Shown one piece after another: positions 12,057 to 37,260 of a stretch of 64,000 nt of DNA. Position 1 is the first letter of the stretch; every line of letters starts with the position of its first letter. The notes beneath the pieces were generated by a model. It searched no databases. It saw only the letters and a program-made list of their open reading frames with translations, and had not been told where the DNA came from. The DNA comes from Phoronis australis (lineage: Eukaryota > Animalia > Phoronida). The stretch spans positions 674,460-738,459 of the forward strand of contig NMRA01000167.1 of NCBI GenBank assembly GCA_002633005.1, given 5' to 3'. Made by a program: the position numbers and the translations under genes.

Positions 12057-12081
12057 TGTCAATTGAGCAATGTCGTTACAG

Positions 12082-12636: not shown

Positions 12637-12695
12637 GACATTATTCAGCGTATCGACAGAGACCGAAGGTCGAGGTCGATACGCGGAATAATGTC
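12637..12695. repeat. Hairpin with 21-bp arms inside an insertion in the copy A 3' region (non-autonomous transposon-like)
   Basis: GACATTATTCAGCGTATCGAC ... GTCGATACGCGGAATAATGTC; the surrounding 12590-13090 is absent from the copy B 3' region. Confidence 0.6.
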
Positions 12696-13744: not shown

Positions 13745-13970
13745 AAATTAAGAATAAAAGATGACGGACGAAACCGTGGACTCGTGTATTACAAGGGATT
13801 TGTATAATAATAGGTGTGTATGTGCGTGTGTGCGTGTGCGTGTGCGTGTGCGTGTGTGTGTGTATTTGGGTAACAGACCTTCTTTTATACATGTTTCGTT
13901 GAAAAGTAAGCCGTTCTTGGCCTTAGATAGTTTGTTCAACAGACAGTTGGAATAGTAGATCACCGAGTGT
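13745..13970 (-). mobile_element. Penelope-like element remnant with embedded (GT)/(GTGCGT) microsatellite
   Basis: Minus-strand peptide NKLSKAKNGLLFNETCIKEGLLPKYT resembles the N-terminal FNxxCxxxxLLPxYT motif I associate with Penelope-like ORFs; microsatellite 13814-13863; adjacent GATGACGGACGAAAC resembles a degenerate minimal hammerhead core. Confidence 0.5.
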
Positions 13971-14317
13971 GAGTGGCATCACAAACACAGACACATGAGT
14001 AAATATAAAATAAAACACAGTACAAAATATTTCATAGTAAAAAAATTGCTGCACTTCGACAAGACTTCAGTCATCCAAGTAAATAAATTTAAAATCATAA
14101 ACGCTATCGCGTATGATACATGAAACAAGAACAATGACAATAAACACAAATATAAGGTAGGACATATATGAGCGCAATTTTGGAAGGAATTTTCATGGAG
14201 ATTAGTGTACTAGAAAACGTCATATTTGTCAGAATTTAGACTGACACTGTTCTTAGTTTTATTTTATTTTATTGTTCTGTTTGTATTATTGATTGGCATA
14301 ACCCCTGAGGTCAGTAA

Positions 14318-14757
14318 TGTGATGATGTAATATATTTACTACAGAATAGTGTGGAACTTTCTAGAAGACTCTAGCATGTCAGTGATTAATGTAGTCTGGA
14401 ATACTCTAGATGTATATGTTTGTAAAATGATTGGGTAGATTCCGGAAAGTTCTAGAATGCGCTTGAATTGGCGAAAAGGTTCTAGTACGTTGCATGAGAC
14501 TATAAATACCCGGACATGGGTTTGGGAAGTGAGTTGAGAGAGTTAAAAATTGAACTTCATTTAGTTACTGGAGAGTTACAGTTGAGTTGCTGAAGGTGTC
14601 TCAGAAGTTTATCACAAGTCAAGGCTTCGCAGCACTGGCTGGAGCGTAGAACAGACATTACGTCGGACATTTTGTTTGAGTAGGCTTGTGAACGTACGGT
14701 CGATGTTAATAAATGGATTAACTCGAACCAGTCTTCATTCTATCTATTATTATAACA
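14318..14757 (+). mobile_element. Candidate solo LTR
   Basis: TGT...ACA termini, U3-like TTCTAGAA repeats, TATAAATA at 14501, AATAAA at 14708; no clean TSD. Confidence 0.6.
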
Positions 14758-14869
14758 ATACTTCTCCTTGACTAAATATTTTTGTGTGAAACTATTTTTA
14801 ATATAAAAAATGACTCTTTTCATTTAGGTTCTTGTTTTTTCGTTGAAGAAGCTAAAGGTGCTAAGAATA

Positions 14870-15886
14870 TGTTTGGAAGGATATTTTTATATCTTATACA
14901 AATTTATCAATCTGTGTGAGATAGATTACCCTTTGTACCAACCTTTGTGGTATAACTCCAAAATTCGTATAGATAGTAGTCTAATTTCAAAAGTATATAC
15001 GATGCGTATACGATATAATTGACCCTGATAAAGGATATATTTATAATTATCATACTTTTTGTATACGTTTTCAATTGTGTCCTTGTATTACTCAATACTT
15101 CGTTCTTGGAATCATCTAAGAGACAAGAGTACTATAGTCACTCCACTTTTTCCAGAACATATTTTTCGAATCTCCTCGGAAAATAAAGGGACGGGGAAAT
15201 CTGTCAGTTATTCATTTCCAAACTGTATATAAAACCTGTTGCAAAATTGAAGTGGCAGAGAGAAATTAACTTATGCGATACTCAGTCTTGGCAAAAAATC
15301 ATTCTGTAATATATCACTGTACTTCCGATGTCAGATTCAGATGGTTTCAATTCCGCATCAACCACAGACTTATTGGTGCAAGCTCTTATTTAAAGAAAAT
15401 AAGTGTTAGTGAATCGTCTTTATGTTCTTTCTGAGAACAACATGATGAAACAATTCTACATTTGTATTGGGAATGCTCACTTGTTCAGAAGTTTTGGGGA
15501 TGTATAAAAACATAGATAAATCAGTGCGATTTCCCTCTGCAGTTAAATATGTCTTCCACCTTGTTTGGAGATCCAGCCTTTAGATTAGAAGTTGTAAGTT
15601 TAATTTTTTGCTTAGCAAAATTTCACTTATATAGGCAAAAGGCTAAGGACAATTCTTAGTCATTTTACGCGAGGTACGCGATTACCACAACCTGGAAAAA
15701 TTAAGTTACAATGATAAATTGGATACTCAGAGATTCCAGGCAAGGTGGTCTTCTTTTTTGCCCAACTAGGTTTTATAGGGTTCGTTAATGTTCGTAATTT
15801 GTTTGATGTGCACTTGACTAGATTTCATATTGCTGCACAGCTATGTACTGGTTGGTTGAGTTAATAAATGTTTCATTCAAAAAAAG
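14870..15886 (+). mobile_element. 5'-truncated L1/Tx1-type LINE, ORF2 C-terminal zinc-binding region and poly(A)
   Basis: Reads FRWFQFRINHRLIG...LCSF*EQHDETILHLYWECSLVQKFW (zf-RVT-like); ends AATAAATGTTTCATTCAAAAAAA about 150 bp upstream of the copy B ATG. Confidence 0.8.
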
Positions 15887-16032
15887 GTTGATGAAAGTCG
15901 CGAAGTTTTTGTAAAACGACAGAAACATTTCGTGTGACAAAACAATCACGTTGATCATCAGACATCAATCGCAGAGCGTGCGCGTTTCATTCAAAACAAA
16001 ACAAAATCAGTTCATCTCCAAATTTATGACTG

Positions 16033-16623
16033 ATGGCGAAGGATAAACGCTTTTTATTAGAATCCTTAACACTATTTTTATTCGTTATCCAATGTAAAGC
16101 TCAGCTTGCAAATCACAATTTTTGTGAAGTTCCAGCCAAGCTTCTTATAATCGTCCAAGGAACAGAGTCTCTTCACTGCAACGATGAATACCCATCAGCA
16201 TTTTTTGAATTTGGAGTTATTCCAAAGGTTTGGTGGAGAACGGCGGATGCTAGCAAGAAATACACATTCATCTTAATAACTCCGCCCAGTTCTGGACCGG
16301 AATACGGGTTGATCTTTCTTGCCGCAGGTATTTCCGGCACAGTCTTACGAAAACCACAAGGTAGCGGTAACGTTTATGGGGAAGCAAGTGGAGCAAAGTC
16401 TACGCAGATGAATCCAATCCAGCCTGGAATGTCTCCAGACGGACTAAAATACCATTGCCTACTTTTTCTTGAGGCAGACGGCCAGACAGTCACTGATCCA
16501 AGTGGAGGATATTCACCTCAAATCAACTTCAACGACTTTCTCACCACAAACAACTTCGCTGTACCAAGAAACCTAGCGGCCAGCTTCCAATTTACCGTAT
16601 ACATGGGATGCATGTTGCCTCAG
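16033..16623 (+). CDS. Copy B exon 1 (197 codons): signal peptide + divergent PEBP/PEBP4-like domain + first Cys of CCP module
   Basis: Leader MAKDKRFLLESLTLFLFVIQCKA; PKVWWRTADASKKYTFILITP, LAAGISG, KYHCLLFLE, NFNDFLTTNN, LAASFQFTV match the order and spacing of PEBP elements (P.V....A....YTL.M.DP; WLV..I.G; HRY.F..Y.Q; F...F; ASTQF); donor CAG|GTTTGT at the same site as in copy A. Confidence 0.8.
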
Positions 16624-18724
16624 GTTTGTCATCTTTTTATACATTTATTACATAAACAGAACATTAAAGATCTGATTACAGCACACAGAAATAAGCACAT
16701 ATGCACGTGTATACCTAGCCAGACGGCTAGTTTTATGGAAAATATCGTCAAAATACAGCTAGGATCCAACGCTACTATAGACCTGGAAATTTCCACCCAA
16801 TCAGATCTATGCATCGCAACAAGCTTGAAACTGTGTTTGAAAAGGTTGTCGAAACATTCTGCATCCTCACCTCGTATTTTGACGTTTGTTTTCATAAAAC
16901 AAAGCGTAATTGGGTGGCTACCTTCATCCGCGCGCATATGTTATAAACTAAAAGAAAGTGCAACTACATTTATACTGTTAAAACATTCAAGGCGAACGGT
17001 GAACACTTATCGTAGCGGAGTTTGTTCAAGAAATGCAGACGTAATATCGTGTTATTCTCGATCAGAAGTTGATAGCGCGCTTTCACAATTGCCCAGAGCC
17101 ATTCCTGAGTGAACTTCTGTTTCTGCTCCTACTAACTACTAAACGAGCAAAGGCGATTTGCTTTTTCTGTTCATTCATGTTTTCTACATTACAGCAAATA
17201 CCCTTAGTTTCAGTAAATTATGTTCAATCATCGAATTAGTCGGTTAACCAACCCTTAGAGGACTGGAAGTCAATGCAGTGAAAGAGTACAATCAAGTGGC
17301 ATGCACATCCCACTCGAATAGCACACCAATAATTAACCTGGACACGTCAAACTTGCGCAACCACGTGAACACACTTATTTGCAGAAATAATACGGCGAAT
17401 GCAACCATAGATTAAGTCTATGATGCAACATTGCGGAAATCAAGCTGTTCGAAATCATTTATTCACTCGAAGATTCGACTTTTTAATATTCGCTTGTGAC
17501 TCCGCCATTTACATTTTTAACCAACCGGTGAACATGTAAACTGAAATATTCACTCCTGCGATGTATCAGATGCAATGGTTATTTAAACTGTTAAATGAAT
17601 CTTGCATAAATCCCGTGATGGCTTATATCTGTCATACCTCCAACAGGGGGTTGCTACGGAATAATAATCAATGGTCACTTGTCTTGGCATACAAAGCCCT
17701 CCGAAGAGCTGAGTGCTGGCTATCATCAAATGATCAGTTGCTCTTTGGTATTAGGTAAATTTCAGCAGTCAGTTTTTCAACTGACTCTGTCCTGGCATTT
17801 CACCCTTACTCTTTTGTGCTTTTATATAATTTTTGCAGATATTTGGCAAATCACTGTTATTTGGAAATTAAACTTTTTCCTAGACCTTTGGATTATGAAG
17901 CTCACTAAAAAATCGTATAAGAACCTAAAAACTTACGAGTGTTAAAGTGTAACTCATTTGACTTACATCACGAAACTCGAATATGTATATGTATAACCTC
18001 AATCGATACTTCGCCACCGAATGTCTTCCCACAAGCTAGAGCACAACGGAACCATGTCCATCCCTTTGCACATGGGGAAATTTGGCTTGAGTGCTCATTG
18101 ACTTTACGTTTCCGTTGCGTCTCCTGGACCTCCCTGCAAGAATCCGTTCAAGCTGCATGTCATTTCCAGCTCAAAATGCGTCCTACCCTGAGTCTTCACC
18201 TAACGGTCGCAAACAATTTTGCGTTTGTCCATGTTCATTTTTTCTGGCTAGGCCAGTATTTGGATTACCAATATGTGTCCGGACACCCTACATCTTGCTG
18301 GCAAGTAATAAATAAGTTGAAAACATGATTATTAATTTTTCTTGATCTAGTATACGATTTTGAGTCAAGTTGGCGCTTTTAAAAAACCTGAATTTCGCAG
18401 TCCGCCCATCTCAGATTTTAACCACCAGTGAACTATTAAATCAAGATTGTGCGGTTTAGTGAACACGGTTACACAGCTATGCTACCTGCTGTGTGTATTG
18501 AAACACAAACGTGTTTTATCGATCATATAAGTCCACTAAATACAAATTTAATCCACCGAAATCGTAAGCGTGGCGATCATAGATTCACTGTTGACCACTA
18601 ACCTGACATTTTCGCTTTTCACTCGTTTCAGTGCCTAGCTGACTCCCGTAATAATCACATGTATCTACAGACTGTATCAATTGCCTGGTGTAAAGTACCT
18701 TTCACACACACAGGCTTACCCTAT

Positions 18725-18885
18725 TGCTCTCCTATACTATAACAAGTTACTTCTCGAACGAGTTGTCGCTAGGTGCAACCTTGACGCTATTTTAACTACT
18801 TAGAGTAGTGCAACTTGCGACATTTGTTACAAAAAACTCGTTCGAGAGTAACTTGTTGGCACTTTTGATCGCAGTGTGACAGCAC
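18725..18885. mobile_element. Short palindromic MITE-like element
   Basis: AACAAGTTACTTCTCGAACGAGTT (18741) pairs with AACTCGTTCGAGAGTAACTTGTT (ending about 18857). Confidence 0.6.
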
Positions 18886-19066
18886 TTCAGGTGCAAGGCG
18901 AAAGTATTTATCCGGGTAGGGTTCAAAGATTCTAGGATCTTGCTACATGTAGGACCTCGCGAGAAAAGCAGGAGCTGGCAAAATTATGCAAGATAGTGCA
19001 GCGTATTTTAAATGAGAGCACGTGATTTTCGCTAGACTTCTGTCGCCGCTAGGCAGCTACAGTAGC

Positions 19067-19094
19067 TGTGTGTGTGAGGGTTGTGTGCGTTTCT

Positions 19095-19147
<53 letters not shown>
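19067..19147 (+). repeat. (GT)n microsatellite
   Basis: Perfect GT run at about 19099-19147. Confidence 0.95.
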
Positions 19148-19148
<1 letters not shown>

Positions 19149-19349
19149 AAATACATCCGGACAGGTGTTTAGTCAGATATTTGACTTGAAACAACGAGTG
19201 ACACATTAAGGATGGCGATCATTTACTGGCAATACTAAACCTACAAAAAAGATACAACTATACCTTTTTGAATGAAACACTATACGCAACAAAGCTTAGA
19301 ACGTGTTACAAAATCAGAAAAAAATGACAGACTGTTACTTCTCTATGTA

Positions 19350-20950
19350 ACTGGGTGATTTTGTCCTTTACATGTCCAGTCGATGGGGGTAAATACACGA
19401 CCAAACTGAGTCTTGACGAATGTATGCGGGGACCTCACACGCCCCAGAAGTATGCTGGCGGTATTTGGCGTCTTTGGGTTTTCACTATCGGCATCCTGGT
19501 TTGTAGTCTGACTCTCGTTGATCTGGGTTTGCTGAGTAGTGTATTGGGAAGGTTGAAGAACAATATGGCCGATACAGCTCCAATGGCTGCCAGTACCTCC
19601 ATCAGTTTTGATAAAGTATGAACGTCACCGTGGCGTTTTGGCTAGCGCCAATTATTGTGCACTCTTGGTTCCCGAGGTTTAGACTGTTGACCCCTACTCT
19701 GGTACCTTTTTCCAGAGGTTGCATGTCGTTAGCATTATGTCTAAGTTCATGGTGCGTCTTCTGTTGGGCCTTGCTGTAAGACAATCGAATTCCGGCCATT
19801 TGGGGTCGGGGATGCTTGGCTGAATTAGGACGTTCGTTCGCAAGCGCTGTCCCATGAACAGTTCCTTGGGCTTGAACCACTTGCAATTGATGTTGCTCTG
19901 TAGGCCTACGTGTAGCTGAGTAGCCATAGAAACGGATCGCTATCATTTTTCAGCAGATTCTTGATAGTTTCCACTCCTGGCGCTGCAGCACCATTATTTT
20001 GGGAGTGACGAGGGCTGCTGGTAATGTGTCTGAGATCACAATCGTGTGAAAAGTAGGCAAAATCGGCAAACTTGCTGCCGGGGTCTGTTCTCATCACGAC
20101 TGGTACGCAATGACTTGCAAATTCTGATTTTAGATGGACAATTACTTCATACAACGTGTTGGAGGCGAGAGGAGCGACTTCAGGGTAGCAGGAAAAGTAC
20201 TCTACCTGTAATATGTACGATCGTTTGAACTTTTCAGTAGTGTCATGACCTCACGAGGGGCTCAGTCGTTATCAGGGGATCAGAAGGCTGGCACCTAAGT
20301 CTAACAAAGGTCACACGGTTCTTTACGGCATCTTGGATATGGTGACACAATCAGGAGCACCTTGTAAAGTTGAGCTCGTTGCTGGCATATGGCAATGCCT
20401 TTGTGGCCATTGATAGCTTTAATCCAAAAATGGCGAGAGTACGCGGGCCATATTTGAGTTGTCCCTTGTCGTACGTGTTGTTGCTGAGGTGGGTCCAATG
20501 GGATCTGGCAGTCATTGGAATTTGCTTTTTGTTGTCATAGTTTTCCACGAACGTCACAAGCAAGTTGCATTCCTCGTAGGTTCTAGTCGCTATTCTCAGC
20601 TGTTCTGGGCGGTTCTTCGTTGCTGGTAGGGACAATTTAATGGCACGCACGAACGCTGTGGCTTAGTTCTCTAAGGCTCTGTCCTACCTAGCAGGTCCAC
20701 CGTTGCAGATTGAGCCGCAATACCTCATCAGCATGATATAGGATGCCTGTATTCTGTATTGAAATCCACTGATGTCATAGTTTCCTAACATTGGGTCGAG
20801 TGACTAATGATCGGTCACTATTGTGAAAGGGAGTCTGATAAGCGATCGCACGCCCACGAGACGTCCAAAGCCTCTTTCAGTCTGCGACGTGGCGCAGTAT
20901 GCTTGGACGCAGTGAAACGTCACGTCTTATTGTTGCTGCAGGAATGCGAA
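19350..20950 (-). mobile_element. Decayed Gypsy fragment (end of RNase H and integrase)
   Basis: FASHCVPVVMRTDPGSKF...HITSSPRHSQNNGAA..VETIKNLL..DPFLWLLSY (19906-20154); PKELFMGQRLRT. Confidence 0.8.
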
Positions 20951-22701
20951 ACCCAGTCAAATCTTTGTAGAATTTTACTCTGGATAAGTGAAGTAGCCTA
21001 TTTCATTTCTTTGAGTACTGTAAAATCACCGACTGCATGAAACATTCTATAACTCTGTGGTCAAAATTATGAGAAGTCTTTGAAACTCCTGTGACAGGGA
21101 TCAAAATGTGTATAAGGAAGGTTTGAGGAATTCTATGCAACACGCAGCTGAGAATGGTATTTCATCTTTTATATGCGTATAAACAAAATATTCTCGCCGA
21201 TGCTCGTCTGTCAATTTTTTATACTTTAAATCTGATTGCAAAGCGTGTCATGTCATCTAGAAGCTCGTTGATTCCTCTTCCGTGTTGCACTGACTTTGAT
21301 AAGTTACGTCCGTAAAACAAACAATTGCAAACGTGAGTAAAAGCCCATTAAAAATGAAAAAAAGTCTTTGATGAATACAGCCTAAATTTGCAACTTGTAT
21401 TTTTACATTTAATGAACATTTAAAAGGATTCTGGACTGCAGGTGGTATTTTCTGAGTGAATAAAAGTTTCGTCTGATGATACGCAACACTATAGGCATTA
21501 TAATGTAATAGTGACAACCTGAAATCTATTTTTTTGAAAAGTATCTCGATTTTTGTTGGATTTGAATACTGCTTTTTCCTTGTAGTGGCAATTGTATTGT
21601 TCATTTGTCAATGCATATTTCAAAACTCAGGTTTGCGCTTGTTATATGCGTGTAGATGTTGGCGTAACTACATGTAGTCTTGAGTTTAAAGACATGTAAT
21701 ATTTTGAATGAAGTTGTTGTAGTTTACAGAGGAAAGGTAGGCGGAGGGAGCTTCGAGTTCTTTAGGGGAGTATGGGGAGCGTCTGTGGAGCCATGCAGAA
21801 ATATCTAGCATATTTTGAACGACTATGAGCTATTGTTAGCATAATGGCTATAAAAGATGACATCCTACTGCTGAAGGTGCTTGTAGCTTGAACTTTTCGT
21901 GATTCTTATTTTTTGAGAATATTGCTTTTTGGTGTCATTTCAGAGTAAATTATATCTTTTCTTGAATTTTTAGACTTTGCTTAATTGTTTGGCCAATTTT
22001 ACATTTGCACTAATCGCAAACAAATTGAGTTCTGTTATTGCATAGAAGGCTGTCATGTTGTGGTATCGCGCTAATCCACCAACAACTTGTGCTCGCCTTT
22101 GGCTTTGAACTACGCTGATACTCCACTAAATCACATGTCTCTCTGTTGTTTCCACTGCAGTTTAACAGGGCTCTCCCGGATTACACGGCGATAGAACTAT
22201 CATTTGTCCCGGAGATAAGAAAGTGCGTGATCCTGTTTTGGAAGTCAGGCACATTTTCGTGTCTCTCTTGGGGAAGCAACGAATTTCAGACGTGCCTCCA
22301 TGGGTATTTGGACAAATGGAGTAATATACATGTAATGGGGAATAAACTTGTAAAGAATGAGACAACAACAAATAACATGTAAAACTCCCGAGTGGCATAA
22401 AAACGAGATACCAAATGTGCCTGGGGCATATTTACGGCATTGTGGGTAAATAAAGGGAGACTCGAGTGTCGCTCTGTAATCCGGGACAGCCCTATCCAGT
22501 CAGTTTTGTGAGCCACTTGGTTTTCTGAAACTAATAGATGAGAGATTACATAATACCGCTGTTTAGTAAAATCATGAAAATTTTGAGACTAGGCAAGCTG
22601 AAGTCCGTGAGATGCGAACACAAAGTCGCTAATTTTTGTAAGTATTTATTCCAGTATTAGACTCAAACTGTTTTACAACAGTTTAGTGTGTTATGAGTTA
22701 G

Positions 22702-25700
22702 TGTTGTACTGGTGGTGTTTTGTCATAGTTGCTTGTGATTTCTCTGATGTCGTCTTTTTGGTTTCCAATAAAGAACTCCTTTTTACAACATAACAATTGG
22801 CGACGAAAATAATGGCAGATATTTTTGAAATCATTGGCCTTATGCAACAGCACATTTTGGAACAAAGATAACCCCCTAACAGACGGCTGGAAGCCATGGC
22901 ACAAAGTTTCTCACAACAGGAAAGGAACAATCATTCAGTCCCAATTCAAAAGTTTAAAGAATTTGATTCTAATGCCGAGCTCTGGATAGACTATTGGGCG
23001 AGGTTTCAAATTTCGCATTTCAATTCCACATGAAAGATTGGCTCAGATTTTTTTCTGACAAACCCAGTCATCTTCAGTTTACAAGCTTCTATGTATCCTA
23101 GCAAAACAATTGAGTCCTCCGAAGGAAATTAGCCAGTAGCAATTTATGTCAGAACAATTCGTTGAAAAACGTGTTAGTGTTCGAGAACCACTCAAACTCT
23201 GGACTGAAACTAAACGTAAATCTGGTGAGAGTTTCCAAGAGTTAGTGGCTAGAATCAGACAAGTTGCGACTCAGTGTGATTTCTTGTCCATCAAAGATTC
23301 GCAAGAAAGCAATGAGAACAAGATTTGTCAAGATTAATTATGAAGCAGCGCTGAAATCGTAGTTCAAAATTAAAGATGGTAAAGTTTCCTTCGCAAAAGC
23401 AGTTGAAGTGGCTATGGAAATTGAAGAGGCATCCAGTGTGGCACAGACATGGTTTACGGAGATCCAGTACTTAAATTGCAAAGGGAAAGAAGGAAGACAG
23501 TAAGCAAAACGAAGCACAGAAACACGGTGATTTTCCAAAGGGAACATGTTCCCGTTGTGGAAAAAAAGGATCACGCTGCAAAGGATTGCCGTTTCAAGGA
23601 CGTTGAATGCCACTTCTGTCATATGAAGGAACACTTTTGGCAAAAGGGTAAAGTACGCCAACTTTTACTTCCACCATTTCTGCGGAAACAGTTGGTCAGT
23701 TTAATAACATAACAGATCGCGATCCTATTCAAATACTGTTGCAAATTATTGGTAGAGATTTGTTGTGCGATGTTGATTCGGGATCGCAAGATAATTTCAT
23801 TTCAAAGCAGACTTGGGCAAATTTGAGCAAAACCAAACCTCAACGCTAGTCACAGCAAATATTGTGCAGGGAATGGCCAGTCACTTCCAGTCATAGGAAT
23901 CTTCAAGCCTGAAGTTTGCGTGGTAAGTCAGCCTAAAATACATTGGATATTTGGATATTGTTGTCGGCAAAAATGTTTTAAATCTTGTAGAGCAGTTCGG
24001 GGATACGCCAACACAAGACATATGTTACTTCGCCTTGCGGTTTTCAGTTATAAGAGAAAGTGAATGTTCTACACTCGCAAACAGGAGTAGACATACATGT
24101 AAGCCTACAGAAAGGATGCAAAGAACTTTGTAAACAATTACGTGATATGTTTAAGCCAGAACCTGGTGGTTTGAATAATTTTGAACTGGAAGTAAAATTT
24201 AAGTCGAACGCCAAGCCACAGTATTACAAGCCTTGTACTGTACCATACATGTATGCATTGCTTGAGGATTTAAATCTTGCTTGTGAAGAAGGTATCAAGG
24301 GCAGAGTATGGGAGAAATCTCGATTCAGTGATTATCATACACCAGTTGTCTCTATACAGAAACCTCATTGTCTGCACAAAAAGAACTGGAAATTGCGTGC
24401 TTGTGGTGATTATTTTGCTACCGGAAATTCACAGTTGGAGACGCATCGACATCCGATAGTTCTACTGAGGGCCTGGTGAGAAAACTGAGTGGTAACCATT
24501 TCTTTACAAAACGTGATTTAGCTGATGGATGTAACCAGATTAAATAAGCTCCTGAAAGTCAAAGACCACTAGCGCTATCTACTCATCAAGGAGTTCTTTT
24601 ACAAAAACGCCTACATTTTGGCATTAGTTCTGCTCCAGAGCATTTCCAAGAACTAATGGAAAAGTTAACAGGTGATCTTCGAGGAGTTGCAGTATACCTT
24701 GATGACAGTTTAGTCACTGGTAAGAATGCTACTGAACAATTAAGCAATTTGCGTGCATTATCGCAATGGTTGCAACACAAAGGACTGCGATGCAGAAAAG
24801 AAAAATGTTGTTTTGCACATCAACAGTTGAATAGCTTGAACATTCACTGACGCAAATGGGTAATAATTAAGATTCAAAGGTTGATGCAGAACTTAAGATG
24901 CCACCACCTAAAGACGTGGCAAGTCTACACTCTTTTCTTGGTTCGTTGCAATTCTAGGGAAAATTTATTAAAACCAGTTTCCGCTCATTCTGAACTACTA
25001 AATCGGTCAGTTCTATTATAGGAAGACTTTGAACAGCGTATCAATGCCGATTTTTTTCGTTGTTATGGACAGTAAAATAGATGTGAGAGTTTTCTGTCAA
25101 AATACACTAACCGGAAACTGAAATTGGCAATTTAGGAGAGTGGCACCTCCTCTAGGATACTACGCAAGAAAATGTTGGAGCTGCGAATCTGTTGTCTATA
25201 ATCTATGTTGAAACAAATAAGTCTTCAACTAGACCCTGTTAATACAAGTTCGCTCACTAAAGGATCACGAAAGGATTCTGTTATTTCAATGGTCATGCGC
25301 ATGCGCGAACCCAGCCTTTACTATGGGGGGGCTCGAATTTCTGACGATGTGGACCTTTTGCTGACAAAACGCGGGAGGACTAACAAAAAACGGGGTACCA
25401 CATTTATTAATGACCTTTGTCTCGTTTTTTTTTTTGATTTTTGTTTCTCTGAGGCGGACCTTGAGGATCTAGAAAGACGATGTAGGTCATGTGCTGAATA
25501 CCGAAATAAGCCATCCAAAGCTGTTGTTCATCAAAGGATGCTTCCAGAAAAGCCATGGAGTCGTTTTCATTTGAATCATGCATTCGATTTTCTTGGGTCT
25601 AATACATGTAGGTTAGTACTCGTGGACGCGTACAGCAAGTATCCTTGTAATCATCCTACGTCGTCAGTATCATCCAAAGCAACCACAGATATTTTGGTTA

Positions 25701-26315
25701 TCCACATACAATAGTGACTGGCAATGCGACGCCATTCGTTTCAGAAGAGTTTCAGGTTTGGTGTCGCGAGCGTGGTATCGTCTAGCCTACAGGAGCGTCA
25801 TAACATCCGGCTACTACCGGATCTGCCGAGAGAGTTGTTCAGCCTTTTAAACAATCTTTGAAAAAATCAGCATCCCAGCCGAGGAAAGCTTTACAAGAGC
25901 TTCTTATTATAAAATACAGACGCATTCCGTTGGATTCAGGCTATACGCCGAGTGAACTTCCAAACGGTCGTCAAATACGTTGTAAGCTATATGCTTTACT
26001 ACCTTCTCCTGTGCACGCCGCTCGAGGCAAACAATCATTACAGACCACAAAAGGCACAGTACTGTACATGAAAGGAAGTGCATTCGCTTCTCGTTTGACT
26101 TCTCCGCATCCCGTGTTGGGTCAGAATGCTATGCGCATTACTGTGGAGACGAATAGCGCCGGGCAAACCCAAGGCTGAAAGACTTAAAAAGAAGCAGATT
26201 TTTCGATTGGAAGGGGAGGTGTTGTAGTAGTAGTGTTTTGTCATAGTTGTTCTTGGTGTCACTCTGGTGTCATCGTCATGGTTGCCAATGAAGAACTCCC
26301 TTTTACAACATAACA
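22702..26315 (+). mobile_element. Near-complete decayed Gypsy (Mag-like) element with very short LTRs (22702-22795, 26220-26315)
   Basis: LTRs TGTTGTA...TTTACAACATAACA of 94 and 96 bp; PBS-like TGGCGACGA after the 5' LTR; PPT GGAAGGGGAGG before the 3' LTR; gag knuckles DHAAKDCRFKDVECHFCHMKEH; RT VAVYLDD; integrase PEKPWSRFH..VDAYSKYP. Confidence 0.92.
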
Positions 26316-26448
26316 GTGAAGATGGAATTTGTATTCAGGGAAATGTCCCAATTACTTCTGTAGTTAGAAGGGAGTTGTGAGATTGTACAGAGGTTTGCCT
26401 TTTTATATTGTCCAAATGTGGTGTGGTGTGGTGCCTCTGTTTTCAGTT

Positions 26449-26454
26449 CACACA

Positions 26455-26519
<65 letters not shown>

Positions 26520-26541
26520 ACAGACATTCACACTCACACAC
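26449..26541 (+). repeat. (CA)n microsatellite
   Basis: Long CA run. Confidence 0.95.
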
Positions 26542-26710
26542 AAGCTTTTCCTTCCTATTTCTATCACGTTTCACTTTCCTACATTCACGCTTCCCATTTT
26601 TCATGAAAGGGCTGTAAACAGAGGTTGTTGCAGCTAAGCATTTTTGTGTTTTATGATAGTTAAGACCAGTTTAATCAAGGTTGCGAAACTCAATTATAGA
26701 TAGGAAAAAA

Positions 26711-26956
26711 GGACCCGTTCCAATAAACCTGCCTCACCTGAGACATATCTTGGAATTCAGAGTCAATTTTAAAATAAAACTTAAATTTGCCTGAAGTCCG
26801 CTTAACAAGTAAGATAAGTTTGACTTAAATCTTAACATAAGTTTTATCTTAATTTTGACTAACTAATCGAATTTGAAATTTTCAGAGTTTAGAAGTTGAC
26901 GCAAACCTTAGACGTTAGTTAAAAAGGAACTGAGACGAGTTTCTTGGAACGGGCCC
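26711..26956. mobile_element. Harbinger-like MITE
   Basis: GGACCCGTTCCAATAAAC pairs with GTTTCTTGGAACGGGCCC. Confidence 0.65.
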
Positions 26957-27049
26957 ATGGTCTATTTATAGATATTCAGGCTACAACCCAACAATGACAA
27001 CAGTTATGTGTAAAGAACAAGAAAATGTCGTAGCTATAATCCTTTCTCT

Positions 27050-27955
27050 CTCACCAAGTTTTTAATAAATCAAACCAAGAACGTATGCCATTCAGCCTGG
27101 TAGTAGCAGGGAAGTGTATGATTGCATTGAGGCACTTTAAAGTGGAACGAACACAATTGGAAGTGATTTCAAATCCAACAAACTCGACTTCGTCCTTGGC
27201 AAACACGGGTGTGTCTTGGTTAAGGACGATCATATGGTGCCCACAGATGTCAATCCGTTGAAATGCTTGGAAGAAACGCATTTGGTGTGATTGGGTACGT
27301 GGGACACTATTTCATCATAGTGTCTAGTGTATCCATCTCCAGATGCTGTCTTGCAGCGGTAACTACACCAAGATGTAAATGTCGTGAGGTGACGGTCTTA
27401 CTCTTTGATTGGTACGCTGTGTTTTTTTTCTGATCATTCGGGACTGACCTTGTCTGGTAAAATGGAGACAGAGTGTGACGTGTTTCAAGAGTTGTACATT
27501 TACATGAATGTTTATTGAGGGGTTGAAATCCGACTGATCGTCGCGAGAGTCCAGACTGTTTCACCATGTTGTGACACCAAGTAATAGGCTCGTCAATTGG
27601 CACTGGCTCGACGACGCCAAGCCTGATATCTTGGTCTAGTGCGGCCGTTAAACTATCCTACCAATGAAGTGGGGTCGGGTATGGGGGTATGGAGTGCAAA
27701 TTGTTAATCGTTGTCGCCCACCATAAGCGGTAGGGGTTCATGGTGAAATACACCTGAGCGATAAAAGTCCATCAGGTCCATTGTAGCATTTCCCTGTTCA
27801 TATCGTTGGCTGAGAATGGGAGATAGTTGCCAGGGGTGGTGGCCGCTGGCGTTGTACACATTTTCAAAGTGATGTAAGTCCACTCTGGTTAGGACTTTCT
27901 CGTACAGTCCTTATATCAGAAGTGTTTACCTCTGCCCCTGCGAGCTGTTGCTATT
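27050..27955 (-). mobile_element. Gypsy RT fragment homologous to 8100-9035
   Basis: PIDEPITWCHNMVKQSGLSRRSVGFQPLN; VLNQDTPVFAKDEVEFVGFEI; collinear with the copy A intronic Gypsy in the same orientation. Confidence 0.85.
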
Positions 27956-28699
27956 GAAGGATTCCTTCACTTCTTTATTGGGAAGTCGAATTTGTGCATG
28001 CTCAGTAATGCCTAAGATTTTCTTGAAAGCAGATGGTTACACAGCAAAATCGTGTTGTGACATTTTAAAAACCCACTCTAAATCCCACGGCAGTTAATGC
28101 GCACGCTCCAATTTTTACCGCGCTCGCTAGGTGATGTGACTTCATCATCTCAATTTTTAAAATATAGGCCAAAGGTGAGCCATTGCGGTGTTGTCAGTCA
28201 AATGTTCGTTTCCAAAATGTCACCACTTATACTTGTCTTTAATTGGCGTTACTTGAAACTGTTTGTATTTCAATGAATTATTGTTTGTATTTGATAAAAA
28301 TAAATGCTGTTGATATGACATTTAATAGTCTTTGTGCACATTTTTGATATTTTAATGTTTAACAACACGGCAAATGCACGGCTGGTTCCCGGCAGCACGT
28401 ACGCAAAGGGCGGGAACCGGTAGGATCGCAACTTCTGACCTTCGGCCTGGTTAAAAAGAATGAAAATTTTGATTTCACGATTTTGGGAACTGAAATAGGG
28501 ACTGATCGAAGAAAAAGTTTCATAACGGGAGTATTTGTTCGAGTTGGAAGGACTTAAACACATCGACAACCTCCTAAGGTGTTCTTCTATGCGCAATAGG
28601 TATTTATAACAACGTGACTTTGATGGTTTAGTCGGTGCGAGGCATAATTCGCCGAAAAGCTTCCGGCGTACAGAGCGCCTATAGCCTCAGCATCGCCTC

Positions 28700-30537
28700 T
28701 GGTTCGGGCCAACAGAGGCGATGGTCATTGCCTAATGCTGATGTTGAAAACATAGCCACAGCACGTCTCGTGGAGTTAGCTCTAAAGTCTTTTAAACCAT
28801 GGAAGTCCCCTTGACTAGACATGATATATCCTATAATGTTGCAAGAAGCTGGGATACTACTATTCCAAATACTCACATCAACTTACAAAGCCAGTCTTGG
28901 ACTAGGTTATGTCCCTAAGACTTGGACTGAAGCTAGAGTAGTCTTCATTCCTAAACCAGGGAAGAACTCATACCTTTTGGCTGAATCATTTAGGCCTATA
29001 ACCTTAACATCCTTTCTTCTCAACGGACTGGAAAGGCTCATCCTGTGGCATCTTGATAAACAAGGAATACAGAACAAACTTCAGAACAACCAGTATGCTT
29101 ACAGGCCTGGCTTCTCTACGGAGACCGCTCTACGTCATCTGGTTGCTAGGCTTGAAAGGGCCTTCATTGATCTTGTTAGTGTTTTCAGCAATATTAAGCA
29201 TGATGCCATTCGGATTGCACTGAACCACTTTAAAGTGAATAGGTGCCTTACCAGGTGGATCATTAACATGCTTGGAAGTCAATCTGTGATTGCTTGTCTA
29301 GACGTTGTGAGATTGGCGGTTCGCATCACCAGAGGAACACCTCAGGGTGGCGCTGCCTCACCCACACTCTTTAACATGGTTATAGATGGTTTTCTTCGAC
29401 AATTGTCTACTGAAATGGGTCCAAGCTTGTATGCTGAAGCCTATGCAGATGATATTATTCTCAGTGTGTCTAGCATCACTCCTGACACATGTCGCTATCT
29501 TGCTCAAAGAGCACTGAATACAACAGCCACATGGGCCAAGTCAGTTGGCGTAAACATTAGTGTTAGAAAACAAAGGTGATGATGTTCACTTGGAAGCTTA
29601 AATGGTCAATGCGGCCTTTAACGCTGAATGGTAAACATCTTGATCTTGTAGACAAGGCGACTTACTTAGGTGTCGTTTTACACCATTGTCTTTCCTAGAC
29701 CCGCGTATTACAGAAAAAAATCTCAAAAGCCAAATCTGCATTAGTGAGATGCAGTCGTGCGGTTGGTAAAACTTCGGAAATGTCTCCCAAGAATATGTTC
29801 GGGATTTATACTGCTGTTATCCGTCCTACATGTATAATGTCCTATGCTGCGTCGATATGGGTCTAACAGTATTAAAACTGATGACAATTATCAACAAACT
29901 TAGGCAGCTGCAACGTCTAGCTTGTCTCTGCATAACCTCTGCTTTTCCAGGAACGCCTTCTGCAGCCCTAGAAATGCTAATCGGTCTTCCACCACTGTAC
30001 ATATACATGTACCTTGAGGGTGAAGCTGCATGTGCTGCACTTCGTCTCAGAAAAAAATGATCAGTGGGTGAAAACTAACATCCCTGACTCCCTTGCACAC
30101 AGAAGCCACAGGAATGTTTGCAATAAGCTAATGGCCAAGACTGGGCAACTATGGAACATGCCTAGTGATGTCCAGGTCACAGCTTTAAATCATACAAACA
30201 ATTTCTTTACGGAAATTTGCGATGGATGGCCTACCGCAGAACAAAGAATGGTTTATTATACGGACGGCTCTAAACTGGAAAATGGCCAGACAGGTGCTGG
30301 GGTCTACTTTCCAAGACATAATGTTGCAGATGCAGAAAACTGGGTATCGCTAGGCAATCTTGCCACGGTGTTTCAGGCTGAGATCACTGCAATTAATAGA
30401 GCTGCTCCACTGGCACAACAATATAACACTGAGCTTGGCAATCGGCCAATTACCATCTTTTCAAATAGCCATGCAGCAATAAAAGCCTTAAAAAACTAAG
30501 GGTCAACTCTCGTTGTGTTAATGCTTGTATTAAGTAT
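28700..30537 (+). mobile_element. RNase H-encoding non-LTR retrotransposon (Loa/Lian, R1/I group), 5' part
   Basis: RT VVFIPKPGK, FRPITLTSFLL, GTPQGG..SP, AYADD; RNase H YTDGSK, TVFQAEITAI, IFSNSHAAIKAL; interrupted at 30537. Confidence 0.9.
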
Positions 30538-33500
30538 CAGTCCACGGATCCACCGACCACTGTACAGCCAAAAAGCGGCAAGGTGGGGGGTCAACCATTC
30601 AGATCCATGTTTAGTCTGATAAATCACATTAGGGATGAGAGAAAATGGGTGAAGTATGACACCACAAAGTTTGGTGGTTTAGGAGATACATGGGAAGTGT
30701 TCTTGGGGGCAAAATGAGGCAATTTCTTGCTGTGGAATGAGTCATTTTTGACCAAATTTTCTACTCCAGTTTCTGCTTCAAACAGAATCGTTTCTGAACA
30801 ATTTTGATATCACATGATAGGTTCATGACCAATGTCAGTAAAAACGGCACCGACACTGCAATATCGGTTACCATGGTAACACTGCAACTGTTTCCGTGGA
30901 GGTACATTTCCGTCTTGTGAAAAACCAGCAGTAAGCTGTACCCTTATAGCGAAGCTGCCCCCGCAAGAAAACTAAAAATAATAACATGGACATGTAGAAG
31001 ACTCCATGCCCTTGAAATTAATACAATAAAAACTTTGTCAGCGCTTCAGGCAGGCTTGGTAATAGGTGTCTGAATTTCACTATTTTCAGACCGCGTATGT
31101 GTATTTGTCATGTTAAACCAGTCACTAGTTGTGCGCCGTTTCTACGCATTAATATGCCGTGGTATAAAACAACAATTAAAACAATTGGTTTGCTTAAATG
31201 TTTTTAATTAATTTTAAGGACACTAGCATTTCCCAATAAATAATGAAATTATACTAAATTTGTTCATCCAATTCGTCTGAATACCAAACTAAAGCTTACA
31301 ATGCGTTAGTTGAATGATGGCTGACCTAAAGTGCGGGTTTGCGAATTTATCTATTTATCTGGCACTGCCAGTCGCATCGAATGTGGTATTTCTACAAATT
31401 GCGGGGAGAAACAACTTTGGAAACTCTAGGGAAATACACAAGGTATAGAGCGAGACATTTGAGCACCTTATAAGAGTACGTGGAGCTGATGTGGAGGTGG
31501 AACGTGTCCTCCTGAGTAGTCTGTCTCAGTGTCTGCCTCGGAGGCACTGTGTGCAGCAGGAGCTACATAATCTACCGTATTAGGTTCACTTGCCCGAATC
31601 ATCGTTACAACACTCGAGATATGTTGGCGTCGCCAAAGACACTTAGAACATTCACTGCACACTAGAGGAGAAATCTGATAGAGGTCTGAAAAATTACCAA
31701 AGACGTTTAAAGCCAAGGTTCAACGTCCTGCTTCGTGTGAGCTCAGGTAGGAATCACTAAACTCCAGGGTCTGACCCTGAGGAATATTTTTAGAAGCCCG
31801 TCATTCATGCAAAAATACTTTTATTGACACAAAGTGATTGCTTATAGCTTTGGCCTTATTGCTTAATCATATCTTATCCAAATGTGTTGATGTTTATGCA
31901 ACTACATGTATACAATGGCATAGAAAATAAGGTTGTCATCATAACTTTTCATAACAACCACCAAATGTGTAACATGACTTCTGCCCATGAAATACTTTTA
32001 GAGACTAGGGAGTATGTTTTGTCTACCAATGATTTTCTGCGATTGTGAAGTTAATTAAACATGCTAAAGCCGTCAAAAATATTGGTCCCTTCACTTATTT
32101 TAGCTTGGTATTCATATTTTGTGAGCCGAAATGGCCACATTAAATTTAATATGTTTAATTTTTCATTAATACAATTTTAGGAATCGGGAAAGGCTTATGC
32201 TGAAGAAGTGGCTTCTGCTGAAGTTGGAGACTTGCCGATTATTAGTAAAGGTTGGGTATGGAAAATTTCACAACCAGCGAGAAGATACCCTTCTGGACAA
32301 CTAAGTGAGGGGGCTAGAGAGAGGCCGAAAAGTCTACTCCCAGAAGATATGTAAAAGAGAATTTGTAGCTTGAGGAACGAGTTGGGGAAAAAGCATTTGC
32401 CAAAGATTACTGGCTTATACCACAACAGGTCCAAAGTAATTTGTTGAGATAGGCCACTCTCAACAAATGTGGGGAAACTGGGACAGAGGAAGTGGAGTAT
32501 GCATAGAAAGAGGCAATCTGCGATTGTCAAGGATGTAGCATTGTAAAAATTCAATGGGAGGAAACAGTACAGTGGCTGGACCTGTAAATACTCTGGCTGA
32601 TCTGCTAAATCCAGTGGGGGCATTATTGTATCAGCACAGCTGTGTAGGGAAGTAGGCCTGTGTGTTGTCGCAAGCTTTGTTTGCACCAGAACTGCTTGTG
32701 TGAACAGCACAAGTCTAAAATTTACCTAGTCTAAGACTGAGTTTTTGTCCAGGCACGGATTATGATCCTGGGCCACATGGTAATGGTACATTGTTCATTT
32801 TGTTTAGCCACTGGATTTTTTGGTCTGACAGGATTACTCAGTGTCGCCATCACATTTAGATGATTTCTGACCTCTGTACTATTTCTTTTCCTTGAAGATG
32901 CGTAATTGATCTGAATTTATGTTTCCGCATTTTATTTACCATTGTAGATTTTTGTTTGTAAATGGGTATATATTACTGAAATTTGAGACCCTGTTGCAGT
33001 TTTTTTTGCTGGTTTTTAACTTATCTTTCTGCCTGGGTTGTAAACCCATATTCTGTCCAGGATGTAATAAGTTTTGATTTAGACCATTTACCTCTATAAA
33101 CTTTGCTCAGTTTGTTCCTTATCCAGATGGGAAGTGATTTCTGGAATTGTAGCGAATTGACAGTTTGCTATTCCTTGAGACCATGCTGTGTGTATAAAAT
33201 CGCACATTATTAGTGTGGTAGCAATTGCATATTGCCAGATCTTTCAAAGTTCTGAAATTTCTCAAAGTGACCTGGAAGTAATACCTATTTCGTGATGGTA
33301 AAATGTCTAAATCAAAAGTTGTTCTATGTGATTTTAGGCGAGTTTATGTCCACTTCAAATGATTTTTTGTTGTAGTACTGAAAAGTAGTGGCACATTAGC
33401 TCTGGTGGCTCCTTGTTTTTTTGGCGAATTGATCATTTTATGGTTCCCATGGGTAGTTTTGTTACTGGGTCTAGTATGTATGTACAACTGTAATCGTAGG

Positions 33501-35559
33501 GCAATTGTAATGCAAACCGTGTTGCAAAAGTATTTTTTCATGACCATTTCATTGTAAAATGCTGCCTAATTGGAACCAACAAGCCAATTTTTCATTTTGT
33601 GGTGGTTAGTTTTGATAAGAACATTGATGTGGTAAATACAGCTACCTCAAGTTTGTGAAGAAGAGATTTCCAGTGTTGTCAGCGATATTGCGAAATCACT
33701 TTTTCGCAGTGAGACTACATCACCTTGAATGTAATTCCCTGACTTTATGAGCTTTGTGTGGTTGACTCTGTCCTGTAGCAATTAGAGTGTTGAAAAGATC
33801 TAGAAGGCAATTTTTTATTAGAGTCATAACATTTGCACTTTTGACTGTACAGTTATCTTTGCATTGTATTACGAAAACATATTTTGTAGTACGCAAGTCT
33901 CTGGTTGGTATTTTATATTTTTTCACAAGGAATATTTTCAACTTAGATGAGTTGTCTGTGAGGTAGGCAATTTTCAAATAAGATAATGAATAAAATTGTC
34001 AAACATTGTTTTATTTTTTAGATGTGTGATCTTCCAATAAGTGATTACTTTTAAAAAACCTGTGCAGAATTTGATTTTTACTCTTCATTTGAAGGAGAAT
34101 AAATCCATAAACCTGCATTGTCTAGAAATTTTACTCAAACTACATATTACAGGGTTGGGGATTGGAATCTTAATACAACAGAGTCTGAACCCGTACCATG
34201 AGCAATACAACACAATACACGGATATAAAAATTTGGTGTTTAGGTTCCACGGAAAGGATTCGTGTGCGCGGTAATAGTTACTAAGGTGCGTGGTCATTGT
34301 TTGTGGATACTTTGGGATTCCTCTTCTGTGGTCATCCACGGGAAACCTGGTCGCATAGAGAACAATAGATTAGCATCTTCATTGTTTCCGTTGTTATAAT
34401 AAAGATATAATGACGAGCACTTATCGGCAACGGTCTGATGTACGCAAGGTTCTATATCCATGCGACCTGTGTTGTTACATCCAACAATGACACAACAAAG
34501 GAAAACAATGATAGGACCGATGGGCGAAAAACATGCGACGAGTTGCCATGGACAGTGGTGGAGTTTGTCTTGTCATTCGAATGTTTTTACAGAACTGCAA
34601 ACCCGGTATTTCGTCAGGAAAATTTCTGCGGTCTTTTGTTTTAAGTCGTGGGAAAAATTGCGGTCATGCAACCAAACTTATCCTTCATTTGATATTACAA
34701 TGCATTGCATGAACATTTGATCAACAGAAAATCTGACTTGAATATGTGTGAAGAAATACCCATGAGGAAATTGCAAAGTAAAACAACTGTAAATCAAAAT
34801 AACCTACATTTGTCGAGTTCATGTCTAACCCTGTTCACTGTGGAGGACATAATCGGCTTTTTACAAAATGGAGCCATGTATGGTATTTAGGGGTACTATA
34901 GCCCTAAGTGATCAGTAGTAAAACGTTCAAAACATTCAGGAGGAACTAACTTGTTGCAAAATATCGAAAAACATGAAGGACAATCGGATTTTACGGTGCT
35001 CACGCATCGATCTCAGATATATGAAAATTTCTCATTTTAGTACATTTGAGGTGCCAAAATATATAACTAATAAACTGGCTGACAAAGTTTTTATTTTATG
35101 AAATGAAAGTAACATGTTTTGTCAACATTTTGGCTAAGTTTCATTCTCATAACAGTGGGGGCAGATTTGGTACAGCAGTGTACTGAACACAACCTCAAAA
35201 TGGCATAACGGGGGGCAGTGTAGTAAAACTACTAAATGAGGGTGGTAAATCGGAATCGTGTTTCAAGACATCTGTGTAACAATCTACAGGCACCACTAAA
35301 CAATGCCAAGTGAATAATAAATCAATAGCTTTCATTCAAGGAAAAATATGAACAGTTAAAACTGGACAGTTTTTATACCGTGAAAACATGGCTGCGAAGC
35401 CGTAAAATGTGTTTGAGCCTATAACTTTAGAAAAACGCAATATTTTGAGGAAATATTTTACCGCTGTTTATAGATCCCATAGGACTACCTATGTGCCAAA
35501 TTTGGTGAAAATCGGCTGACCCCCACCTTGCCGCTCATGGCTGGTGCTCTCGTGGACTA
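30538..35559. mobile_element. 5.0-kb TIR DNA transposon (Academ-like, non-autonomous or decayed) inserted in the LINE RNase H domain
   Basis: Left end CAGTCCACG...CAGCCAAAAAGCGGCAAGGTGGGGGGTCA; right end reverse complement TAGTCCACG..CAGCCATGAGCGGCAAGGTGGGGGTCAG; 4-bp TSD GTAT/GTAC; LINE sequence resumes immediately after. Superfamily inferred only from YAG termini and TSD length. Confidence 0.75.
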
Positions 35560-36230
35560 GTACTTAATGAGCTTAACTAGCTTGCAATTGAAATAACCGT
35601 CAATATACGCTGGGTCAGGGCCCATGTGGGAATTGATGGCAATGAGAATGCAGATAGATTCGCAAAGATAGGAGCAAGCGTTCTGCATTTTGTGCCTGAA
35701 CCTGCTATCCCGGTATCTTACGGATGTTGCAGAATGAGTATACACAACTGGGTACATATCCAGTCAGCAGCCCACTGGGCATCACTTAACTCCTTCCGAA
35801 AGACCAAGGAGAATTTTCCCAACGTGATCGAACCAAAAGGTTCAAAAAGCCTTCTGAGTCTAGATAGATTGGGTATAAGACACGTCACTCAAATTTTGAC
35901 GGGCCGCTGCAACCTAGCCCGACACAGACATATTACTGGGCATATGGGGAGCCCTCTGAGTCCCGAGTGTAGTACTGACGTAGAATCTCCTAAACATCTG
36001 GTAGAGTCTTGCCCAGCTTTTTATAGGCTAAGGAGCAACCTACTGGATGACACTGTTACATGCCTACAGCATATAGCGCATGGCAACAAATGGAAACGTC
36101 TGTCCGTTTTCCTAAAGGAGACTGGTAGACTTAAAACCTTTCTTCACGAGGAGCCATAATTGGGCTCTCGTGCTTTTGCTCAGGTGTTTTATGCAATGGG
36201 CCTAACCATGAGGCATGCGCACGTTCGACA
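35560..36230 (+). mobile_element. 3' part of the same Loa/Lian-like LINE (RNase H end and zinc knuckle)
   Basis: WVRAHVGIDGNENADRFAK..EP, ILTGRCNLARH, C...ESPKHLVESCPA (ORF 35626-36159). Confidence 0.9.
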
Positions 36231-36528
36231 AATGATAATTCAAAATATCAAAATGATATGAGAAAAAATGCAACAGTAGAAATAAACGAATACCCAGGTA
36301 CATTCCCTTCACAGACAGCCAGAGGGCTTATCCCTGCAGTAAATCCAATGCGAAGCTGTTAACGTAAAAAACTGCTGCACATGCACTTGTTAAATAGCCG
36401 TCCGCAGTAACCTACCCCAACTTACGGACGCTGGACTTCAGACACTGAGCGGAATGCAAACGTTTGGGTCTCGTTGCATTCGACACATTACTTCAATGCA
36501 GCTGTTCAACTGAGAAATATCGTTACAG

Positions 36529-37260
36529 GTACAGCATCTCACAAGCAGCAAAACGGGGAGAATAAGAACAGGCTCGAAAGTCACATTCACCTGTGCAGAC
36601 GAATATACAACGAACAGCGGTAACAAATCATTGACAACCACATGCAAGTATCCGGGACAATTCAGCCCTGCTGTTCCAACAGCGTGTGTGGTAGCTACGA
36701 CAGTGAGCACTCCATCCGGTACGTCTCCTGCGACAAGAAAACCTACGACAGTGAGTACTCCACCCGGTACGTCTCCTGCGACAAGAAAACCTACGACTGC
36801 TCAACCGAATACTGCATCTGCGTCCAGAATGCACGAGTCGTCCACAACGTCAATATCAGGTGTTACGACTGCAGCTCACCCTATACCGTCCAAAGTAACT
36901 GAGGTCACGAGCGGATCCGCATCACGTTCCCTGTCAAATCCAAGCACGTTGGCTCCAGAACGATCTTCACTGCTGTCATCGATCAGAACACCAAAGGCAA
37001 GATCCAACACTACAATTGTGGATTCACTGGCAACGGTTGCTGCAACGATTGTTGGCAAAATGACACAGACTGTACCAGCTGTCACTTCAGGTCGACCAAC
37101 ACTGCCCACTGTAAATGCGGTCACGAGGTCCATAGACAAGTCAACGTCAACAGCTGTCGGCAAAACTTCAGGCACTGCAACTCCGGGAACGTCTTCTCAG
37201 TTCTACGAACTTTTTTCGTTGATCATAATTATTATGACCTGGGCATTGTTCACGTTTTAG
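36529..37260 (+). CDS. Copy B exon 2 (243 aa): Sushi/CCP module, mucin-like Ser/Thr/Pro stalk, C-terminal hydrophobic GPI-type signal
   Basis: Acceptor TTACAG|GTA, phase 0 matching the exon 1 donor; VQHLTS..GSKVTFTCADEYT..TCKYPGQFSPAVPTAC; about 170 aa rich in Thr/Ser; ends FYELFSLIIIIMTWALFTF-stop with no cytosolic tail. Confidence 0.85.
   Translation, partial: VQHLTSSKTGRIRTGSKVTFTCADEYTTNSGNKSLTTTCKYPGQFSPAVPTACVVATTVSTPSGTSPATRKPTTVSTPPGTSPATRKPTTAQPNTASASRMHESSTTSISGVTTAAHPIPSKVTEVTSGSASRSLSNPSTLAPERSSLLSSIRTPKARSNTTIVDSLATVAATIVGKMTQTVPAVTSGRPTLPTVNAVTRSIDKSTSTAVGKTSGTATPGTSSQFYELFSLIIIIMTWALFTF
36695..36797 (+). repeat. 48-bp coding tandem repeat (TTVSTPxGTSPATRKP x2)
   Basis: Units start at 36695 and 36743, partial third at 36791; single unit in copy A. 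Confidence 0.9.

Follow-up and report, generated by a model that had tools for sequence, protein, structure and literature searches.

The usual view of PEBPs is of soluble proteins with a pocket, regulators or candidate enzymes, in which five signature residues are almost invariant. Can their fold be carried on the cell surface without that pocket? This question is raised by 64,000 nt of the phoronid Phoronis australis (contig NMRA01000167.1 of assembly GCA_002633005.1, positions 674,460 to 738,459 of the forward strand; the whole stretch is called the window below). A preliminary description, made from the letters alone, had joined 16033-16623 to 36529-37260 into a two-exon gene for a 440-aa protein with a PEBP-like head, a Sushi/CCP module, a Thr/Ser stalk and a hydrophobic end. 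We find that this gene (copy B) is genuine, expressed and spliced across 19.9 kb. Its domain combination was not found described, and its head is probably a PEBP derivative that has lost the pocket. The explanation that we favour, with a probability of roughly 0.55, is that copy B encodes a sample-restricted binding protein that has a pocket-dead PEBP-type head and likely a glycosylphosphatidylinositol (GPI) anchor.

Copy B is expressed and spliced across 19.9 kb

The window is eukaryotic DNA with abundant retroelement remains, and one gene occurs on its plus strand in two tandem copies: copy A (3720-4309 joined to 12082-12483) and copy B, the focal gene (16033-16623 joined to 36529-37260). 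The coding exons of copy B (591 nt and 732 nt) are each divisible by three and meet in phase 0; the donor reads CAG/GT, the acceptor ACAG/G, and the spliced translation is open over all 440 aa. RNA with the same species label was available as raw runs X1, X2 and X3 (about 18-19% of each was read) and as contigs X4, and was aligned to two stretches, 16575-36574 and 2600-17400. Junction reads over 16623>36529, which the preliminary description had named as a check on its model, are present: X1 contains 394 reads across the GT-AG joint, with about 87 starts, and X2 contains 331, with about 80, in a single orientation throughout; X3 has no such reads and X4 no such contigs. In the second alignment (2600-17400), 373 (X1) and 329 (X2) reads leave the donor into the first letters of exon 2 with an agreement of 1.0.

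Transcript 5' ends cluster at 16002 (X1) and 16005 (X2), and together with the read depth they place exon 1 at 16002-16623 (+), with a leader from about 16002-16005, coding sequence from the ATG at 16033 and the donor after 16623. Depth in the bin 15938-16431 is 283 in X1, 199 in X2 and near 0 in X3: expression of copy B is sample-restricted, on in two runs and off in the third. Rescaled to its 192 exon bases, the X1 depth of the bin 16432-16925 comes to about 425. Because this is close to the junction count, nearly all exon-1 RNA must be spliced 16623>36529; depth is near zero in the bin 16926-17400, the first to lie entirely within the intron. The intron defined by the junction reads (16624-36528, +; 19,905 nt, phase-0 GT-AG) holds retroelement remains and microsatellites. 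An unspliced 360-codon frame (16030-17112) was considered as the product and rejected, given the near-zero intron depth and the reads spliced at the donor. Additional coding exons between 16623 and 36529 were also rejected (none among the 15 of 40 joints listed, and exon and direct joint have similar depths). For the stalk and tail in exon 2 the frame is open in the DNA, the stretch compared with RNA ending at 36574. An out-of-frame ATG lies 7 nt 5' of the copy B start and opens a six-codon frame (16026-16046) that overlaps the main start; copy A reads AAG at this place. Lying within the transcript, this ATG could dampen translation of copy B.

The CCP module gives separate support for the gene model, since the intron interrupts it and the splice joint restores it. 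Judged by cysteine positions, and conserved in copy A, its start (Cys193-Gln197; 16609-16623, +) is the end of exon 1, and the remainder lies in exon 2 (36529-36690, +; PF00084 E 5.2e-6), where Cys219, Cys236 and Cys250 complete the set of four. Both copies exceed the Pfam cut-off of 20.7 bits (27.2 bits for copy B, 29.3 bits for copy A), each with one CCP stretch, and the RNA connects exon 1 straight to exon 2.

The other parts outside the head were assigned by inspection or composition. Residues 1-23 (16033-16101, +) form a predicted signal peptide with a basic start, a hydrophobic core (hydropathy up to 2.0) and Cys-x-Ala before Gln24, a layout like that at the N-terminus of copy A. Downstream of the CCP, a mucin-like stalk of 169 residues (252-420; 36691-37197, +) consists of 40% Ser+Thr and 10% Pro, is presumably O-glycosylated, and includes in its coding sequence a 48-nt tandem repeat (36695-36797, 2.1 copies). 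A hydrophobic segment and the stop follow (37198-37260, +): the protein ends in 16 hydrophobic residues, whose mean hydropathy is up to 2.4, and no further tail comes after them, small-residue candidate GPI attachment sites (Ser411-Ser419) lie directly upstream, and copy A has a similar tail. A GPI-type layout (signal, small residues, terminal hydrophobic segment, no cytosolic tail) fits both copies, and from the sequence we consider it probable that the tail is a GPI signal rather than a membrane-spanning segment. The two-exon gene, the CCP, the Thr/Ser stalk and the terminal hydrophobic segment of the preliminary description are thus all borne out.

The head domain and its probable relation to PEBPs

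The head (16102-16605, +; residues 24 to about 191, about 168 aa) contains a cysteine pair, Cys31/Cys49. Compared with a PEBP profile by hhalign, it is assigned a probability of 92% (E 6.7e-7), colinear over 109 columns, at a score of 47; none of 188 shuffles scores above 22. A PEBP hidden Markov model (HMM) gives 13.4 bits, reached by none of 2000 shuffles, and the heads of copies A and B both lead a ranking of 303 open reading frames (ORFs). A language-model search over the named ESM Atlas clusters, using a selected part of the head, also ranks PEBP clusters first (0.82, a lead only). The best single-sequence matches (z 4.2 to 8.0) are the metagenome PEBPs L068 and L072 and a spider 'protein D1-like' (P0004). 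L068 (400-987) and L072 (315-875), both from metagenome contigs, are PEBPs of eukaryote type; each carries an N-terminal Cys pair, and L068 has a signal-like start as well. Cys31/Cys49 is in register with this pair, which suggests a Cys31-Cys49 disulfide and descent of the head from a secreted PEBP; the secreted subtype of L068 and L072 may be the source of the domain. No homologues were found among 72 pattern matches in metagenome contigs or among 74 in prokaryote genomes, and a two-sequence viral PEBP profile gave a probability of 0.8%; the single stretch matched in viral contigs was uninformative. From these comparisons the head is very probably a remote PEBP homologue by ancestry.

PMC8793217 gives two Asp, two His and one Arg as the near-invariant polar pocket residues of PEBPs, five in all; mL38/L35 and plant PYBHB are there the sole PEBP groups with multiple signature replacements. 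In alignment A5, with hhalign in the same register, the Asp-Pro-Asp, His and His-Arg of PEBPs become Thr83-Pro84-Pro85, Ile94 and Leu138-Lys139 in copy B, so that the five signature positions hold Thr83, Pro85, Ile94, Leu138 and Lys139; in copy A these positions read Ser, Lys, Ala, Gln and Lys. No signature residue (0 of 5) is identical in the head and one replacement is conservative, while the neighbours Pro84 and Tyr140 are retained in copy B. Because none of the five is kept, we describe the head as PEBP-derived and not as a member of the PEBP family; the same loss, a point absent from the preliminary description, speaks against the head having a canonical PEBP role, be it in ligand binding or as an enzyme.

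A number of results weigh against the relation to PEBPs. Exon 1 of copies A and B matches no Pfam family at E up to 10, including PF01161, which has a cut-off of 24 bits and for which five control PEBPs scored 41-67 bits; support for the earlier label 'PEBP-like' comes from profiles (hhalign, HMM and, as a lead, Atlas) and not from Pfam. The HMMER alignment is confined to 29 residues. Atlas scores below 0.9 are leads, one third of shuffled proteins getting to 0.8, and the entire unfiltered head gave no usable match in that search. Moreover, the PEBP tests targeted one family, and their E-values carry no correction for a search of all families. Among PDB sequences the head has no match (profile A3 returned only two unrelated rows, E about 1), and among 5.8 billion proteins none was found at E up to 1 (35 near-length and 1292 longer candidates). 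Three matches among 1.84 billion representatives were rejected as homologues, being tandem-repeat proteins with summed weak stretches. Escherichia coli YbhB gives no match to the head, and 15 of 24 single PEBP domains stay below z 2. The unseeded single-sequence AlphaFold model has a predicted local distance difference test (pLDDT) score of 31, and nothing meaningful was obtained with it from Foldseek and VIA. A PEBP-seeded model fits the PEBP fold, but this is circular (13 of 16 rows are PEBPs); its residues 1-37 have a pLDDT below 50 and it yields no Foldseek row at E 0.001.

Copy A and the possible role of the copy B protein

Exon 1 of copy A (3704-4309, +; ATG at 3720) is 79% identical to that of copy B in DNA; its frame is shifted by a net +2 nt near 4110 and reaches a stop at 4215-4217. 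Exon 2, located by tblastn (12082-12483, +), encodes the CCP (PF00084 E 1.2e-6), a short stalk and a hydrophobic tail in an open frame. Conservation of both splice sites in copy A had been brought forward in support of the gene: GT and AG are indeed retained at the matching positions, but the support is weaker than stated, as copy A is frameshifted and its joint 4309>12082 is absent among the 15 of 37 joints listed. RNA depth over copy A is 12-19 in X1/X2 and about 1 in X3, and the joints 4309>5428 (13 and 5 reads) and 3310>4021 (6 and 9 reads) are present in X1 and X2; in the exon at 5428 the frame ends after 15 codons. Among the 12 of 44 RNA indels listed, none falls at the frameshift. Most simply, copy A is a recent transcribed pseudogene. 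It may still be an assembly error or a null allele, because exon 2 of copy A has an open frame and the stalks of the two copies differ in frame only.

Some intron segments are common to both copies at 70-76% identity, so part of the intron is older than the duplication. The heads of A and B are 58-71% identical in protein and the non-coding flanks 79-87% identical. Over 265 codons the ratio of nonsynonymous to synonymous substitution rates (dN/dS) is 0.67 overall (head 0.77, CCP 0.55, signal 0.21). This counts against our favoured explanation, as a value of 0.67 is weak evidence of constraint and is confounded by the frameshift of copy A; relaxed and positive selection are indistinguishable by this ratio and the flank identity.

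How might the copy B protein act? We lean towards a role in recognition or adhesion. According to the favoured explanation, the protein would enter the endoplasmic reticulum by its predicted signal peptide and have its tail swapped for a GPI anchor. O-glycosylation would keep the stalk extended, so that the CCP and the PEBP-like head would be raised above the glycocalyx and away from the membrane. The pocket-dead head would then serve as a non-catalytic surface binding an extracellular partner, and, in whichever tissue or stage X1 and X2 represent, the protein might be a tether, a decoy or a co-receptor; because it has no cytosolic part, it would be unable to signal alone. A broader proposal, which we regard as doubtful, is that in this lineage the PEBP fold became a rapidly evolving extracellular recognition domain with a dead pocket, mounted on a CCP-mucin-GPI scaffold, and that this gave rise to a new receptor family for self/non-self or gamete recognition; the PEBP signature would then have been lost once more, independently of mL38/L35 and PYBHB. 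A single exon without introns encodes the entire head together with the first CCP cysteine, an arrangement that would be expected if a secreted PEBP had been retrocopied and the copy captured by a CCP-mucin gene.

It is very unlikely that the head is instead an unrelated, lineage-specific beta-rich domain with one strand motif in common with PEBPs by chance. The lack of any Pfam or database match, the restriction of the strongest local similarity to one 29-residue stretch, the missing signature residues and the low confidence of the unseeded fold would agree with this, but the colinear 109-column match is far beyond the shuffles, both paralogues lead the 303 ORFs, PEBP comes first in the search of all named Atlas clusters, and the Cys pair is in register with L068 and L072. 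As an alternative function, a PEBP-derived head tethered to the surface might block a protease of extracellular or microbial origin. Yeast Tfs1 acts in this way on carboxypeptidase Y, and inhibition of serine proteases is reported for mammalian PEBPs. PMC1828699 ascribes inhibitory roles to PEBPs, and a secreted fungal PEBP is termed a putative protease inhibitor in PMC5987419. VIA also lists the Tfs1-carboxypeptidase Y complex (1wpx) second for the seeded model, though this match mirrors the seeded fold only. Both copies would start with Gln once the signal is cleaved, and this Gln could cyclise to a blocked N-terminus. Tfs1, however, inhibits via an acetylated N-terminal extension, which is impossible in a signal-cleaved protein, and all five pocket residues are gone; protease inhibition is thus unlikely.

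Least probable of all seems the control of a complement-like cascade (C3/TEP) on self surfaces, in the manner of CD55/CD46. The CCP, the Ser/Thr/Pro stalk and the terminal hydrophobic segment do occur in CD55 order, and among PDB sequences the copy B CCP comes closest to factor H, factor XIII B and CR2, although every one of these matches is weak (lowest E 2.7e-4, summed over repeats). Decay-accelerating and cofactor sites extend over three or more consecutive CCPs, for which a single module is too few. The Trp typical (not universal) between the third and fourth CCP Cys, which factor H has, is Phe in copy B and Leu in copy A, and CCPs are common as spacers. Gamete- or stage-specific adhesion (sperm-egg, larval attachment or matrix) would use the same anatomy in a narrower form, outside defence. 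On/off expression of both copies within one study (high in X1 and X2, near zero in X3), fast protein divergence of the head relative to the flanks and a tandem duplication with changed stalk length are consistent with it. Nonetheless X1-X3 are coded samples without tissue, sex or stage labels and the high dN/dS may reflect decay of copy A alone, and we consider this narrower form quite unlikely.

The preliminary description had also held that PEBPs are mostly soluble, and had likened the protein to CD55-type surface regulators. Vertebrate PEBP4 is a soluble single-domain protein. It is secreted and glycosylated (PMC6755245), as predicted for the copy B product, and, compared by description, is without CCP, stalk or anchor. 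Surface and secreted PEBPs are less exceptional than had been implied, however. Ova1 of Cryptococcus neoformans is an extracellular mannoprotein PEBP with a predicted GPI anchor, in this respect like copy B, but is fungal and, in the available part of PMC1828699, without CCP. TES-26 of Toxocara canis, a secreted animal PEBP, resembles copy B in its small Cys-rich modules and paralogue expansion; it differs in that its partners are two ShK/SXC domains, that it is found in secretions and that standard PEBP profiles recognise it (PMC13747963). In the fungal PEBP P0007, two PF01161 domains are combined with a hydrophobic C-terminus; it has no CCP and keeps Asp-Pro-Asp, His and His-Arg. Like the copy B head, mL38/YmL35 and PYBHB have a PEBP fold with several signature residues replaced; mL38/YmL35 are structural mitoribosome components, and neither group is described as secreted or CCP-fused in the available part of PMC8793217. 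L068, L072 and P0004 differ from copy B in keeping the signature residues and having no CCP, stalk or tail. CD55/DAF and CD46 consist of a signal peptide, four tandem CCPs, a Ser/Thr/Pro stalk and a membrane anchor. Copy B has the same order, its anchor being predicted, and to this extent the CD55-type comparison stands; membership does not, as copy B has a single CCP, cut by a phase-0 intron, and CD55/CD46 have no PEBP-like head.

The PEBP + CCP combination, for which the preliminary description knew of no described family, was not found in the literature and databases searched (mostly non-subscription papers, supplementary annotation tables excluded). Among 7994 candidates scored for longer PEBP proteins there were 13 matches, none of them with PF00084, which is weak evidence of absence. 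Domain shuffling is common in invertebrate surface proteins; if the favoured explanation is true, a pocket-dead PEBP fold displayed on a CCP-mucin stalk would mean that the fold is reusable as an extracellular binding module. The copy B head would also be a natural control for the role of the pocket, with the scaffold retained and the pocket lost. As the head is invisible to Pfam and to large database searches, relatives are probably labelled 'Sushi domain-containing' or 'uncharacterised', and copies A and B provide a first seed for finding them.

Other features of the intron and window

Within the intron of copy B, 28815-36159 is a LINE-like element with an RVT_1 match (28815-29576, E 6e-28) and RNase H matches (29981-30496 and 35581-36156). 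All runs are rich in reads of this family, with a depth of up to 240 in X3, and a GT-AG joint 31746>32181 is crossed by 6, 4 and 11 reads. Broken frames at 24054-26178 and 8098-9034 / 27063-27952 look by eye like pol of long terminal repeat (LTR) retrotransposons, with no Pfam match for the three tested. Two short stretches (23245-23911 and 13751-13793) have one-orientation reads with loose ends in X1/X2 and hardly any in X3; they are probably repeats within another transcript of like expression pattern.

Elsewhere in the window, the open frames 49730-50236 (-, 168 codons) and 52804-53196 (+, 130 codons) have no Pfam match and could be exons of other genes. A suggested likeness of the frames 58930-59346 and 62233-62598 to anoctamin N-terminal regions (ANO8/ANO10-like) was rejected, as Pfam and PDB gave no support. 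At 63311-63891 there is a 294-nt tandem duplication (97% identity), with one of the two N bases of the window at its junction (63604), which is likely an assembly artefact.

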